This document shows positions 2,620 through 15,376 of a stretch of DNA of 15,376 nt, piece by piece. Source of the stretch: a virus. Position 1 is the first letter of the stretch, and the number at the start of each line of letters is the position of its first letter. The DNA is taken from the UHGV virus genome UHGV-0041029; one strand, written 5' to 3'. Under the pieces are notes generated by a model. That model made no database searches, was not told where the DNA came from, and worked only from the letters and a program-made list of their open reading frames with translations. Both the position numbers and the translations under genes were made by a program.

Positions 2620-3144
2620 TTATTGTTTAACCCATAATAGTTCATTGACATTGAATCCCAACTTTTGAGCGGTACGCACATAGTCTGCTTTTACATTATC
2701 TGGAATAGTTTGGGTCCTTGCCAGAATCCATAGGTATTCTCTGTTCGGACCACTGATAAGAGCATACTTATACTCATCATCCAGCTTGATTACATTATAA
2801 CCACCATAGAAGGGGCCAAAAAACGAAACTTTCAACGCTGCAGTTTTAGTATCTCCAGTAAAGTATGCTTTACCTTCGCTCTCGCTCCATTTGTTTTTCG
2901 TTGGATCGTATCCACGGTTAAGTACGCGAATCCCTCCGTCGTTCCGTTTTTCATAAGTAGCGCTGATCTGTTCCAGACCACGTTCGAACCAGTTCTCGAG
3001 GCGAGCTATTTCATACCATTTTCCGAGGTAGCGGTTGGCGTCAAAATTTGTAATCGGCTGCACACCTTTAGGTGGTGTCGGGGCCTTACATGCTATAAGA
3101 GTGAAAGAGAGTGCAATGCCAGTCAACACAGGCCATAACTTCAT
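2620..3144 (-). CDS. blc: Bacterial lipocalin Blc-like outer-membrane lipoprotein
   Basis: 174 aa. N-terminal signal with lipobox (FTLIAC-K). Lipocalin motifs shared with E. coli Blc: NFDANRYLGKWYEIAR, GKAYFTG, AALKVSFFGPFYGGYNVI, YLWILART. AGGA lies 8 nt upstream of the ATG on the - strand. Confidence 0.8.
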   Translation of the reverse strand: MKLWPVLTGIALSFTLIACKAPTPPKGVQPITNFDANRYLGKWYEIARLENWFERGLEQISATYEKRNDGGIRVLNRGYDPTKNKWSESEGKAYFTGDTKTAALKVSFFGPFYGGYNVIKLDDEYKYALISGPNREYLWILARTQTIPDNVKADYVRTAQKLGFNVNELLWVKQ

Positions 3145-5416: not shown

Positions 5417-5482
5417 AAGATATGATGTGATGGCATTTTATAAAGTTATTTTTTGAAGTGTAAGATTATACGATATTTTTAG

Positions 5483-5516
5483 CTACGCCAGAATAATTGC
5501 TGGCGTTTTTCTTTTT
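5483..5516 (+). terminator. Rho-independent terminator after the AraC-family gene
   Basis: Stem acgccag (5485-5491), loop aataattg, stem ctggcgt (5500-5506), followed by tttttcttttt. Confidence 0.6.
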
Positions 5517-5606
5517 GAATAGATGTTCGGGCCTTACGCTAATGTAACTTCTTTCCTTCTTCGAACCAAACCGTGTACACCATCCGTTATCTGCGGAGGT
5601 GAGGCT

Positions 5607-5822
5607 ATGAAATCCATGGATAAGTTAACAACGGGCATCGCCTACAGCACCTCTGCAGGCAGTGCTGGCTACTGGTTTTTACAGTTGCTCGATAAAGTCA
5701 CGCCCTCACAGTGGGCGGCAATAGGTGTATTGGGTAGTCTGGTATTTGGCATGCTGACGTATCTGACAAATCTTTATTTCAAGATTAAAGAAGACAGGCG
5801 TAAGGCTGCGAGAGGAGAGTAA
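5607..5822 (+). CDS. essQ: Class II holin / pinholin (phage 21 S21-like) with dual-start motif
   Basis: 71 aa beginning MKSMDK (Met1 and Met4, the S21 antiholin/holin dual start), with ggaggtgagg RBS. Two TM segments and a basic C-terminus ([13 protein letters not shown]). The track ORF at 5523 is an in-frame N-terminal extension without RBS support. Confidence 0.85.
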
Positions 5823-7522: not shown

Positions 7523-7738
7523 ATGATGTCTAACAAAATGACTGGTTTAGTGAAATGGTTTAACCCTGAAAAAGGTTTTGGTTTCATCACGCCGAAAGAT
7601 GGTAGCAAAGATGTGTTTGTGCATTTCTCAGCTATTCAGAGCAACGATTTCAAAACGTTAACTGAGAATCAGGAAGTCGAATTTGGTATTGAGAACGGAC
7701 CTAAAGGCCCTGCAGCTGTTCATGTAGTGGCACTTTGA
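7523..7738 (+). CDS. cspI: CspA-family cold-shock protein
   Basis: [23 protein letters not shown]...VFVHFSAIQ carries the RNP1/RNP2 cold-shock domain motifs. ATGATG start, so the true start may be 7526 giving 70 aa. Symbol given from Qin-like context (followed by ynfN-like and gnsB-like genes); paralogue identity is not certain. Confidence 0.85.
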
Positions 7739-7942
7739 GGTAGAAAATATTACAAACCATATTCACTTTAGATGCCCGTGTTGCCATGGTTCTCAGTATA
7801 GAACATCATCTTTTGATGTTTCTGACAGAAATCCTTTCGGGGCAAAATGTATCTTTTGTAAATCAATGATGATTACATTTGATAATATTTCACAATACTT
7901 AAATGTTAGCCATCTGTCGTTAGATTTAAGAAAGTGAAAATG

Positions 7943-11919: not shown

Positions 11920-11960
11920 ATCAGAATGATATTGAAGCCATGATTCAGCGTTATGGGTGA
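11916..11960 (+). pseudogene. 5' stub (14 codons) of the gene that followed terminase, truncated by deletion
   Basis: ATG overlaps the terminase stop (ATGA), typical coupling for the next head gene. The frame stops after MNQNDIEAMIQRYG, where tape-measure homology begins in another frame. Confidence 0.3.
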
Positions 11961-12798
11961 TCAGCAGCGGCAGCGATATCAGGTACAACTGAGTCTTCGC
12001 CAGAAATACCAGCAACAGCTGGAGCAGTTGAGGCGGGATAGTGAGCAGAAAGGAATATATAACACGGATGACTACAGAAAGGCCGAGCAGGCGCTGACGG
12101 AGAGCCTGAACCGACAACTGAATGAGAATCGCCGTTACTGGCAACAGCTTGAAGTTGTGCAGGGTAACTGGAAAAACGGAGTCCTGCGTGCATTTCAGAA
12201 TTTTACCGTGGATGCAGATAATACGGCAGGAACAGCAGAACAGGTGTTCTCGTCAGCCTTCAGCAACATGGGAAATGGCCTAGCAACTTTTGTCACTACC
12301 GGCAAACTCAATTTCAAATCCTTCACCTCTTCTGTGCTGTCAGATATGGCGAAAATCCTGGCGCAGGCAACCATGATGAAATCGATAAAAGGGATTGGCA
12401 GTGTACTGGGATTTGATCTCAGCAGCCTTTCCCTGAATGCCAATGGGGGGATTTATCAGTCTGCTGATTTGAGTCGTTACAGTGGCACGGTGGTTAACCG
12501 TCCGACGTTTTTTGCTTTTGCAAAAGGCGCGGGTGTGATGGGGGAAGCGGGACCTGAAGCCATTCTGCCACTGCGTCGTGGTGCTGACGGTAAGCTGGGG
12601 GTTGTGGCGGATATTGGTGGTTCAGGTATGGCGATGTTTGCCCCGCAGTACAACATCGAGATCAATAACGATGGCACGAACGGGCAGATAGGTCCGGCTG
12701 CCCTGAAGGTGGTTTATGACCTCGGGAAAAAAGCGGCAGCGGACTTTATGCAACAGCAGGCCCGTGATGGTGGTCGGTTAAGTGGAGCATATCGGTAA
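11953..12798 (+). pseudogene. C-terminal fragment (about 280 aa) of a lambda-like tail tape measure protein (gpH)
   Basis: The C-terminus (NIEINNDGTNGQIGPAALKVVYD...ARDGGRLSGAYR) parallels the lambda gpH C-terminus (VINNDGTNGQIGPAALKAVYD...MRDGGLFSGGGR). The stop overlaps the gpM start (TAATG). No N-terminal 500+ aa present. Confidence 0.8.
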
Positions 12799-13127
12799 TG
12801 GAGACGTTTCACTGGAAAGTGCGCCCGGATATGAATGTGGTATCAGAGCCGAAAGTGGTGACAGTGAAGCTGGGCGATGGTTATGAACAGCGTCGTGCGG
12901 CGGGACTGAATAACCAGTTGTCGATTTACAGCGTGACGATACGTGTTCGTAAATGTGAACACCCATCTTTAAAAGCCTTTCTGGAACGGCACGGTGGCGT
13001 CCGCGCATTTCAGTGGACGCCACCTTATGACTGGAAGCCGATCAGGGTGGTTTGTCGTAAATGGTCGGCAAGCGTGGGGGCGCTGTGGGTAACCATAACG
13101 GCAGATTTTGAACAGGTCGTGGCATAG
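12798..13127 (+). CDS. Minor tail protein M (lambda gpM homologue)
   Basis: 109 aa, METFHWKVRPDMNVVSEPKVV...EFQWTPPYDWKPIRVVCRKWSA...DFEQVVA, collinear with lambda gpM and the same length. Confidence 0.85.
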   Translation: METFHWKVRPDMNVVSEPKVVTVKLGDGYEQRRAAGLNNQLSIYSVTIRVRKCEHPSLKAFLERHGGVRAFQWTPPYDWKPIRVVCRKWSASVGALWVTITADFEQVVA

Positions 13128-13136
13128 GAGGCCCTG

Positions 13137-13409
13137 ATGCAGGATATTTCACAGGAAACACATCATGAGACGACACGCCTCACTCAGTCAGCCCAGGTGG
13201 TGCTCTGGGAAATCGATCTGACCGAGGTAGGCGGGGATCGCTACTTTTTCTGTAATGAGCAGAACGAAAAAGGTGAGTCTGTCACCTGGCAGAGTCGGCA
13301 GTATCAGGCCTATCCCATTCAGGGGAGTGGATTTGAGATGAACGGCAAGGGCAGTGCTGCCCGTCCGACACTGACGGTCTCTAACCTGCACGGCATGATC
13401 ACCGGGATG
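13137..13409 (+). pseudogene. N-terminal fragment (about 91 aa) of minor tail protein L (lambda gpL homologue)
   Basis: MQDISQETHHETTRLTQSAQVVLWEIDLTEVGGDRYFFCNEQNEKGESVTWQSRQYQAYPIQGSGFEMNGKG...TLTVSNLHGMITGM matches the lambda gpL N-terminus. Homology stops near 13409; the open frame runs on to 13523 through unrelated sequence, which is gpJ read out of frame. Confidence 0.8.
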
Positions 13410-13876
13410 GGAATACCAACATCGCCGGTGTCACGGTGGTGTTCCGGGCTGGTGAGCAGGAGCAGACTCCGCCGGAGGGATTTGAATCCTCCGGCTCCGA
13501 GACGGTGTTGGGTACGGAAGTGAAATACGACACGCCGATCACCCGCGCCATCACGTCGGCAAACATCGACCGTCTGCGCTTTACCTTCGGTGTGCAGGCA
13601 CTGGTGGAAACCACCTCAAAGGGGGACCGGAATCCGTCGGAAGTTCGCCTGCTGGTTCAGATACAGCGTAATGGTGGCTGGGTGACGGAAAAAGACATCA
13701 CCATTAAGGGCAAAACCACCTCGCAGTATCTGGCCTCGGTGGTGGTGGATAACCTGCCGCCGCGCCCGTTTAATATCCGGATGCGCAGAATGACGCCGGA
13801 CAGCACCACAGACCAGCTGCAGAACAAAACGCTCTGGTCGTCATACACCGAAATCATCGATGTGAAACAGTGCTAT
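13409..13876 (+). pseudogene. Internal fragment of tail tip/host-specificity protein J (lambda gpJ, about residues 55-220)
   Basis: NTNIAGVTVVFRAGEQEQTPPEGFESSGSETVLGTEVKYDTPITR...[18 protein letters not shown] is near-identical to the lambda gpJ N-terminal region as recalled. It lacks the gpJ start and the C-terminal 900 or so residues. Confidence 0.8.
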
Positions 13877-14309
13877 TCCAGCTGGCTTCGTGGCTGTTTT
13901 CAACAGTGATGAGTCATCGTGGCATCTCGTTGAAGATCATCGGGGTAAAACGGTTTATGACGTGGCTTCCGGCGACGCGTTATTTATTTCTGAACTCGGC
14001 TCATTACCGGAAAATGTCACCTGGTTATCCCCGGAAGGGGAGTTTCAGAAGTGGAACGGCACAGCCTGGGTGAAAGATGCAGAAGCAGAAAAACTATTCC
14101 GGATCCGGGAGGCGGAAGAAACAAAAAACAGCCTGATGCAGGCAGCGAATGAGCATATTGCGCCACTTCAGGATGCTGTAGATCTGGAAATCGCAACGGA
14201 GGAAGAAAACTCGTTGCTGGAAGCCTGGAAAAAGTATCGGGTGTTGCTGAACCGTGTTAATACAACAACTGCACCGGATATTGAATGGCCAGTAGCACCT
14301 ATAGGGTAA
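13875..14309 (+). pseudogene. C-terminal fragment of tail fibre assembly protein (Tfa family)
   Basis: [67 protein letters not shown]... matches Tfa proteins (TfaQ/TfaE-like). Homology starts abruptly at the gpJ junction, so the N-terminal 50-60 residues are missing. An in-frame GTG/ATG could still allow a truncated product. Confidence 0.75.
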
Positions 14310-14392
14310 ATTCGTAATGATTACCTAAATACGTTATTCTTTTGTTCAAAAAGTGATTTTGCTATAGGTAGGGAGTATGTTCTTGGATTAAG

Positions 14393-14425
14393 AATAAAAA
14401 ATCGCCATGAAAGAGCTTCATGGCG
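14393..14425 (-). terminator. Rho-independent terminator for a leftward (- strand) transcript
   Basis: Perfect 9-bp hairpin cgccatgaa-agagc-ttcatggcg (14403-14425). On the - strand it is followed by a T tract (+ strand aataaaaaat, 14393-14402); on the + strand no U tract follows. Confidence 0.5.
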
Positions 14426-14902
14426 AGTACATAAACGTACAAAATGTGATGAAAGTAGAGTGGCGTAAGCCACTATATTAAGATATGACAATAGCGAACA
14501 AAAGTAAATAACATTTTATGGACGTTTAATTGTTAATTATAAAAACTAGAGTGCCCGATATTGTTTATCTTGCTTTAAAATAATGTACTCAAACCAAATT
14601 TTTGAGCTAAAAGCTCAAATAATATAAATGCAATGATAATGTTTAATAAGACAATTAGCTTGCTTTGTATTTTCATTTCGGAATACTGTTAAGTAACTTT
14701 GATGACCCTAACAATAGATCGGAATTTTCTTAGAGTCAATGGTCACTGTTTTTGTTTGCAAAGCAAATGTTTTGGTGGTTATAAGTTTTCCTAATATAGT
14801 CACCTATGCAACTTGTTCCGTGTGGAGATTAAAGGTTAAAATTTAATGCGAAGATGGAATTATAATATATTTTTTTATAATTAATTTAACCTTAACATCG
14901 TT

Positions 14903-14997
14903 GCTGGCGGCATGGAAGAAATATCGGGTCTTGCTGATATCGTGTTGGCACTTCCTTAGTGCGGTTATCGAATGGCCAGCTGTACCTGTGGGGTAAA
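14903..14997 (+). repeat. Degenerate second copy of the tfa 3' end (direct repeat of about 14217-14310)
   Basis: gcatggaagaaatatcgggtcttgctg...atcgaatggccagctgtacctgtggggtaa aligns with gcctggaaaaagtatcgggtgttgctg...attgaatggccagtagcacctatagggtaa at the end of the tfa fragment. The middle part is divergent. Confidence 0.5.
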
Positions 14998-15128
14998 AAC
15001 TTTATATGGATGCTATTTTTATAATAGCTGGTAAAAACTGGCCGAACTGAAATTCACTGTTGATAAAAAAGATGTGTTTGAGTGTATGTCATTGTTTTCT
15101 TAATGGAATCCACTAGAATGCAGCGAAT

Positions 15129-15326
15129 TTAAGAAGGTGGGTTTTTATTGGAATATAAACTACAATAATGCTCAACTCGTTCGTAGAATTGTTTTTTCTT
15201 ATTTCTTGGAATGCTAACCATTATATGCATTATGGGGGCGATACTTCCTGATAATTTACATGATGCATACATTGAAGCAATAAATTCAATATCATTGTCA
15301 TCAAAGTTAAAGCTTTCTCCGTCCAT
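15129..15326 (-). CDS. Hypothetical small protein (65 aa) in AT-rich DNA
   Basis: Only an ORF in an AT-rich region. No RBS or family support checked, and AT-rich DNA yields chance ORFs less often but not never. Confidence 0.2.
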   Translation of the reverse strand: MDGESFNFDDNDIEFIASMYASCKLSGSIAPIMHIMVSIPRNKKKQFYERVEHYCSLYSNKNPPS

Positions 15327-15376
15327 TTCAATTCCTTATGTGTTTGGCACAACTGATGCTGTATCCCATGAGAATT

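Follow-up and report, generated by a model that had tools for sequence, protein, structure and literature searches.

Phage morons, in the sense of Hendrix and Juhala (lom and bor of lambda are examples), are extra genes that sit between conserved phage genes and bring their own promoter and terminator. Lambdoid prophages are also known to carry small RNAs (sRNAs), among them Esr41 and PasA-D (PMC5286369, PMC8550237). In Escherichia coli K-12, yncL (b4598) encodes a small membrane protein that is induced by heat shock and in minimal medium, and whose production leads to sublethal membrane depolarisation and nucleoid condensation (PMC12542507); YncL is also an RseP substrate, cleaved in vivo (PMC10470546). 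Here we describe the right end of the virus genome UHGV-0041029, a stretch of 15,376 nt (hereafter the window), where an AT-rich segment that we call module 1 (14311 to ~14888) directly follows the tail-fibre assembly gene tfa. Read from its sequence, module 1 looks like a self-contained leftward moron, made up of a promoter-like site, a 33-aa hydrophobic open reading frame (ORF) related to YncL, a 3' untranslated region (UTR) of ~180 nt and a terminator.

The window covers the right arm of a heavily deleted, defective lambdoid prophage that resembles Qin and is integrated in ydfJ of a non-K-12 E. coli. The truncated ydfJ, which is the Qin attachment site, comes after the region in close relatives. 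GC content is 0.49–0.61 over 13200–14250 and 0.29–0.36 over 14250–15300, and the drop, from ~0.5 to 0.3, comes right after the tfa stop at 14309, as expected from the original prediction of an AT-rich terminal region.

On the minus strand, module 1 holds an unannotated ORF of 33 aa (14676–14575; MKIQSKLIVLLNIIIAFILFELLAQKFGLSTLF), whose product is predicted to be a YncL-like single-pass small membrane protein. The ORF was intact in all 58 copies from genomes, phages and viromes and in all 24 metagenome copies, which were found with a codon-degenerate pattern for its first 12 residues (82/82 together). Four peptide variants occur overall, and the 24 metagenome contigs carry three of these. Compared with the deepest lineage, represented by a prophage at the intS/tRNA-Arg site (locus L007), the ORF shows 19 substitutions and no indels; the changes fall 7:1:11 over the three codon positions and 12 are synonymous. 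Read in its own frame, the ORF has a ratio of nonsynonymous to synonymous change (pN/pS) of 0.14 (binomial P = 4.7e-5); the two alternative frames give 0.42 and 5.7. The ORF itself is 81% identical between the two lineages, whereas the adjoining spacer is 63% identical with 10 gap columns. Two alternative ORFs on the minus strand (14803–14708 and 14491–14321) were rejected, being broken by stops or frameshifts in other copies.

The peptide resembles YncL in sequence as well as in size. The NCBIfam model for YncL (NF000537) aligned with it over positions 1–28 of 30 at E = 1.3e-5 and 25 bits, which is below the curated 35-bit equivalog cutoff and marks a relative rather than an equivalog. In an ungapped BLOSUM62 comparison with K-12 YncL, whose sequence we read from the genome, the pair scored 60 against 19.9 ± 4.0 for composition-preserving shuffles, and none of 5,000 shuffles reached the observed score. 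With the two sequences in register, 11 of 31 positions carry the same residue (M1, S5, V9, L10, N12, A16, L19, F20, L22, F27 and G28). Both proteins are ~31–33 aa long and share a lone hydrophobic span and, towards the C-terminus, F-G preceded by a basic residue, and their best 19-aa Kyte–Doolittle windows are 2.54 (33-aa ORF) and 2.15 (YncL). The two genes differ in their surroundings: yncL has the Shine–Dalgarno sequence AAGGTGG and lies between patD and ortT in K-12, whereas the 33-aa ORF has no Shine–Dalgarno sequence in any lineage, belongs to prophage or phage DNA, where it comes after tfa, and, unlike yncL, is followed by a long conserved 3' UTR. There is no nucleotide similarity beyond the ORF. 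Judged by its sequence, the 33-aa ORF is an unannotated YncL-like small membrane-protein gene under purifying selection, and the original suspicion that the region hides a short toxin-like ORF below a 60-aa cut-off holds up in this form.

This gene has escaped annotation. RefSeq has no feature under module 1, and in the protein collection the ORF falls in an unnamed two-member cluster. A HMMER search of 1.84 billion representatives returned only the 33-aa protein itself and one 43-aa frameshift variant; the peptide matched no Pfam or PHROG family, and a literature search for the peptide string gave no match. A core 18-mer recovered the same four lineages as before in IMG/VR, and in GTDB species representatives it gave only chance matches among non-enterobacterial genomes.

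Downstream of the ORF on the same strand lies a Rho-independent terminator (minus strand, 14426–14393), with its stem at 14426–14402 and its U-tract at 14401–14393. The stem has 11 pairs, five of them G-C, and a 3-nt loop by our scan, with a folding energy of -14.4 kcal/mol, and is followed by UUUUUUAUU to ~14393 (the scan readout was 11 pairs plus TTTTTTATTC). Because the plus strand has no T-run, the terminator is predicted to act leftward only; it is kept in every copy examined. The original prediction had placed a leftward terminator at 14393–14425 and read from it an unannotated leftward transcription unit. The hairpin and its U-tract are as described, and the terminator does appear to belong to such a unit, with the 33-aa ORF upstream of it on the same strand. 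Further upstream, a sigma-70 promoter-like site (TTGACT-17-TATTGT; minus strand, 14739–14711) agrees with the consensus at 9 of 12 positions and gives a predicted start at ~14704. In the 80%-identical module 1 of L007, the -35 element is kept and the -10 element reads TATCGT.

Module 1 is widespread and occurs in varied settings. It follows tfa in 831 of 5,426 complete E. coli genomes, and the same holds for three lambdoid phages that are sequenced and named (mEp332, ev099 and PhiR70_1). Its copies, always directly after a tfa 3' end, occupy several integration sites and are followed by differing downstream DNA. The right limit of homology depends on context: it lies at 14888 before an AraC-family gene and at 14855 before sitDCBA, and in the array described below homology is continuous into the next tfa relic. 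The minimal common form of the module (14311–14855) includes the promoter-like site, the 33-aa ORF and the terminator. The arrangement of tfa, module 1 and sitD was found in 20 little-studied genomes and in no well-studied strain.

These properties are those of a phage moron in most respects. Module 1 is compact, with a promoter-like site and a strong terminator of its own (the 11-bp stem and U-tract described above); its GC content is 0.30 against 0.50 for its surroundings; it is predicted to be antiparallel to the late operon; and it is present in some related prophages and absent from others, K-12 Qin being one that is without it. Unlike a typical moron, its cargo is a 33-aa peptide, known here from sequence, and not a virulence or exclusion protein.

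The DNA to the right of module 1 records how the region was assembled. The tfa gene of the window (13890–14309, plus strand; Pfam Caudo_TAP, E = 3.7e-44) is truncated at its N-terminus, with a gpJ fragment joined to it at ~13874; relatives annotate a TfaQ of 193 aa. A second tfa 3' end, tfa' (14891–14997, plus strand), is a decayed, directly oriented relic of an older tfa allele, spanning its final ~105 nt. Our repeat scan reported it as two direct repeats, 14211–14250/14898–14937 (85%) and 14275–14310/14962–14997 (81%), at a common offset of 687 nt, and blastn aligned tfa' with tfa at E = 6e-10. The degenerate second copy at 14903–14997 in the original prediction is thus real and slightly longer than claimed. 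In L007, which has the same array, tfa' is 96–97% identical and is annotated in RefSeq as a pseudogene, a frameshifted partial tail-fibre assembly gene. A third relic, tfa'', lies ~150–380 bp past the window end in relatives (L001 7648–7880); it is more decayed and has an internal stop. The two relics have differing left breakpoints and frame-disrupting changes. By comparison with other prophages, the order of the array is tfa, module 1, tfa', module 2, tfa'' and the prophage end.

Module 2 (14998–15376) is cut off by the window end and extends ~150–270 bp more to tfa'' in relatives; in L001, clear tfa homology resumes ~270 bp beyond the window end. Module 2 occurs in 591 of the 5,426 genomes. 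A third prophage, L063, has a tfa fragment, a module 2 copy that is 75% identical, and tfa'', with no module 1. Within module 2 lies an orphan ORF of 65 aa (15129–15326, minus strand; RefSeq 'hypothetical protein', WP_001421370.1). Compared with its homologue in L063, pN/pS is 0.36 in frame 0 only (P = 0.003), and a conserved AAGGA stands 7 nt upstream of the ATG. The ORF belongs to no Pfam, NCBIfam or PHROG family, and its homologues are all from E. coli. A match to GlgS with E = 0.037 and 14 bits, where the cutoff is 105 bits, was set aside.

The right end of K-12 Qin (tfaQ-pinQ-ydfK-ynfT-ydfJ') belongs to the same prophage family and integration site. Its tfaQ is 95% identical to tfa here, and the last ~500 bp before ydfJ' are 92% identical; in relatives of the window, this common segment follows tfa'' and leads into ydfJ'. 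Between these shared ends, K-12 has the 1.7-kb pinQ-ydfK-ynfT segment, whereas the array described here has 1.46 kb made up of module 1, tfa', module 2 and tfa''. At the equivalent place in K-12 Qin (L011 2391–2504) lies the gene for YnfT, a small hydrophobic protein of 37 aa that is unrelated in sequence to the 33-aa ORF; both variants of the Qin right end thus encode a tiny membrane peptide. In L001, a hairpin with a 12-bp stem (CCGCAGAACGTT...AACGTTCTGCGG) stands directly after tfa'', at the start of the segment common to K-12 Qin.

Taken together, the AT-rich end is a pile of leftovers from past tail-fibre gene swaps, an instance of ordinary phage mosaicism, and nothing in these results overturns the current understanding of that process. 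We propose that, in this defective Qin-like lambdoid prophage, the stretch from the tail-fibre genes to attR has served as an accretion zone. In successive tail-fibre replacements, incoming DNA of the form '...stf-tfa-downstream moron' would have joined inside the resident tfa, each event leaving the older tfa 3' end and the older downstream moron in place, and later homologous exchange among prophages would have spread and patched the array. We favour serial replacement as the simplest reading; the left breakpoints of the relics differ, module 1 is found in varied contexts and module 2 occurs without module 1. The original prediction had suggested that the second tfa end might be the footprint of a lost tail-fibre module. 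A recombination footprint of an earlier tail-fibre module it does appear to be, one of three stacked tfa 3' ends; simple loss does not describe it, as the relics mark additions and replacements.

Within this zone, the sigma-70-like promoter at 14739–14711 would drive a leftward mRNA of ~310 nt, encoding the 33-aa single-pass membrane peptide, carrying the ~180-nt 3' UTR and ending at the intrinsic terminator at 14426–14393. The terminator may shield tfa from antisense leftward transcription, for example out of downstream cargo such as sitDCBA. If it acts as YncL does, the peptide might insert in the inner membrane, partly depolarise it and so alter lysogen physiology. Module 2 would supply a second small leftward gene, the 65-aa ORF.

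Several observations weigh against this account. The promoter-like site is a 9/12 match only, and such sites are not enriched over shuffles in the region. The missing Shine–Dalgarno sequence and the sub-cutoff score with the YncL model count in the same direction, as does the fact that gene callers almost never call the 33-aa ORF. With four protein variants, diversity is low, and the selection signal rests essentially on one deep comparison, that with the L007 lineage. The recombination events are ordered by parsimony, and the patchiness of sequence identity reveals that homologous exchange took place later. With these points included, we hold the whole reading, an accretion zone with module 1 as a leftward YncL-like moron, to be probable, though well short of certain.

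The strongest competitor takes an RNA to be the functional product of module 1. At its 3' end, the predicted transcript carries a conserved block of 83 nt (minus strand, 14474–14392) that consists of a 5' hairpin (14473–14460), an unpaired U/A-rich stretch of ~34 nt and the terminator. This is the usual anatomy of an Hfq-type sRNA, in which a terminator hairpin and U-tail follow an unpaired conserved stretch, and it makes the block a candidate sRNA or functional 3' UTR element. In deep comparisons the block is 94–95% identical, whereas its flanks are 63–68% identical with indels and the ORF is 81% identical. The fold of 14480–14388 has z = -6.7, and the sole change in a stem (at 14469) turns a G-C into a G-U pair, which is compatible only with a minus-strand RNA. 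The block would then act as an Hfq-type sRNA, either transcribed from a promoter of its own or released from the 3' UTR by cleavage, with the ORF secondary or part of a dual function; it accompanies the ORF in every copy, and like the lambdoid prophage sRNAs of pathogenic E. coli (Esr41, PasA-D) it is leftward, terminator-ended, ~80 nt long and set in intergenic prophage DNA.

Other results speak against an RNA product. No curated Rfam family matches the block; the matches to Esr41 (RF02676; 15.6 bits against 102) and MicC (RF00121; 23.4 against 90) were sub-threshold and at chance level, rode on the terminator and were discarded. Upstream of the block, the -10-like TAATAT lacks an accompanying -35, and L007 does not keep it. 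The stems show no compensatory pair changes. Distances among the three lineages are roughly equal within the block, so that gene conversion might pass for constraint; more divergent copies, which would have strengthened tests of covariation and of recombination against constraint, were not found. The codon-position pattern of the 33-aa ORF would also be left unexplained. We regard an RNA product as a minority possibility. Identity with PasB was considered and rejected: in E2348/69, PasB has a tail assembly protein gene on one side and gpJ on the other, and its probe sequence differs and was not visible, by eye only, in the 14390–14704 transcript. A clean recombination breakpoint is seen in locus L008: at ~14465 (window equivalent), where the conserved block has its 5' edge, the sequence switches from matching the divergent L007 lineage on the left to matching that of L009 on the right.

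Peptide and RNA could also be combined. A dual-function RNA would encode a YncL-like depolarising peptide and use its 3' end either as an Hfq-dependent sRNA or as a fold-back element on the start region that has no Shine–Dalgarno sequence; we offer this tentatively, as a rather unlikely reading. When the 315-nt RNA is folded, the minimum free energy (MFE) structure pairs the region around the start codon with the 83-nt block, and the centroid structure is without this pairing. That the two elements interact is speculation from these models.

Alternatively, the region could be non-functional filler, that is, a decaying AT-rich spacer with a terminator that insulates the tail genes and with small ORFs that arose by chance. 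AT-rich DNA of this kind has many short ORFs on both strands, and the region's blank RefSeq annotation and the ORF's lack of a Shine–Dalgarno sequence would fit such a view. It is hard to square with the frame-specific purifying selection in both the 33-aa and the 65-aa ORF, with their freedom from indels next to spacers that have them, and with the decay of the competing ORFs at 14708–14803 and 14321–14491 in other copies. The similarity to YncL, far above shuffles, and the retention of the module in sequenced, named phages also tell against filler, which we judge unlikely.

A type I toxin–antitoxin-like locus, with a hydrophobic toxin silenced by mRNA fold-back or by an antisense RNA, would account for the small hydrophobic peptide, for the depolarisation of cells that produce its relative YncL (PMC12542507) and for a start codon without a Shine–Dalgarno sequence, and the MFE pairing of that start codon with the 3' block recalls the fold-back of hok mRNA. 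The long-range pairing amounts to 6–7 AU-rich base pairs, however, and drops out of the centroid structure. YncL is not classed as a toxin, and searches of Pfam, NCBIfam and Rfam turned up none of the known type I families, nor any antitoxin family of Rfam. We found no convincing antisense (plus-strand) promoter–terminator pair over the ORF, although absence in a consensus scan is weak evidence. On balance this explanation is quite improbable.

The 3' regions of tail-fibre genes are classic places for invertible switches (Mu G, P1 C, e14 P), and the original prediction had raised an inversion system and noted an imperfect inverted repeat (14826–14895), which lies at the junction of module 1 and tfa'. 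The letters of the repeat are present, with a 9-nt perfect core (AAGGTTAAA/TTTAACCTT), but they do not exceed chance in DNA of 30% GC: 14822–14900 folded as DNA gave z = -1.06, with 37 of 200 shuffles folding as well, and a repeat scan of the window did not report it, so we attach no detectable significance to it. That the repeat and the second tfa end are remains of a Pin/Gin-type tail-fibre switch, for which the presence of pinQ at the equivalent position in K-12 Qin would speak, is largely refuted and very improbable, since all tfa copies are direct and no inverted tail-fibre segment was found, a Pfam scan of 14 window ORFs, every one of 157 aa or more among them, gave no match to a recombinase family, the K-12 pinQ segment shows no homology here, and no Gin/Hin-type crossover consensus occurs in the window at three or fewer mismatches.

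The relics also clarify an Rfam family. The IS009 model (RF02111) corresponds to the last ~200 nt of tfa: in the window it matches tfa at 14071–14269 with 212 bits, passing the gathering threshold of 117 bits, and tfa' at 14882–14957 with only 33 bits (E = 1.4e-5). In L001 it places tfa'' at 7648–7839, where clear sequence homology covers ~7765–7880. Counted by IS009 and blastn, there are three tfa 3' copies in L001, three in L007 and two in L063. Although listed as 'Gene' in Rfam, IS009 coincides with the tfa coding 3' end or a pseudogene relic of it in every locus examined (L001, L003, L006, L007 and L063), and nothing at these loci points to an independent RNA gene. PasB has been described as flanked by IS009 matches (Storz-lab preprint, bioRxiv 10.64898/2026.05.13.724894). 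Where IS009 is tallied near prophage sRNAs, what is counted is probably nothing but tail-fibre assembly genes, which bears on studies that take IS009 for a 'structured RNA' near such sRNAs.

Several further observations concern copies of the modules elsewhere. In strain LT2-3, IS1 is inserted in module 1 (L072 ~800–1570, window equivalent ~14810), to the right of the promoter-like site, and the 33-aa ORF stays intact; the situation in HCP6S3_I1 is similar. In L003, a weak match to the Shigella sRNA family CssrB (5440–5624; 33.6 bits against 76, E = 0.004) spans the junction of module 1 and the sitD-proximal DNA; the window itself is without it. Three AraC-linked loci (L002 5866–5917, L006 4866–4917 and L063 5113–5164, minus strand) have a common sub-threshold match of ~40 bits to an unrelated plastid 3' UTR model, which suggests that a hairpin is conserved in the DNA separating the post-tfa modules from the AraC-family gene.

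Elsewhere the window has the content expected of a lambdoid prophage arm. The Pfam scan took in all ORFs of at least 157 aa and four shorter ones, and its matches were DUF968 (ydfU), antiterminator Q, lipocalin, YbgA-like, AraC-type helix-turn-helix, lysozyme, Rz-like DUF2514, DUF1441 and the large terminase subunit, then a Phage_min_tail ORF (minor tail protein) and fragments of the tape-measure protein, tail protein L and gpJ. The lipocalin (Blc-like) gene (2620–3144, minus strand) is oriented opposite to the neighbouring phage late-regulatory genes and is likely another moron. Over 11953–13909, a truncated large terminase gives way to three fragments, from the C-terminal part of the tape-measure protein, from tail protein L and from gpJ (FNIII-A). 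None of the genomes in the collection carries the whole window contiguously. The best matches reach 85% coverage at 99.8% identity, and ~2 kb of the 11953–13909 stretch is absent from these closest complete genomes.

For Qin-like prophages, the stacked tfa relics are a readable record of serial replacement of tail-fibre modules and can be used to order recombination events among them. For E. coli and its lambdoid phages, the 33-aa ORF is a widespread small gene missing from annotation, present with module 1 in the 831 complete genomes and several sequenced phages counted above. As a phage relative of the chromosomal stress peptide YncL, its putative product offers a natural handle on YncL-type function in lysogen physiology, exclusion or persistence. 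If the dual-function proposal is true, lambdoid phages in ~15% of complete E. coli genomes would carry an RNA whose 83-nt 3' end either gates translation of the peptide, as in type I toxin mRNAs, or acts as a released sRNA.

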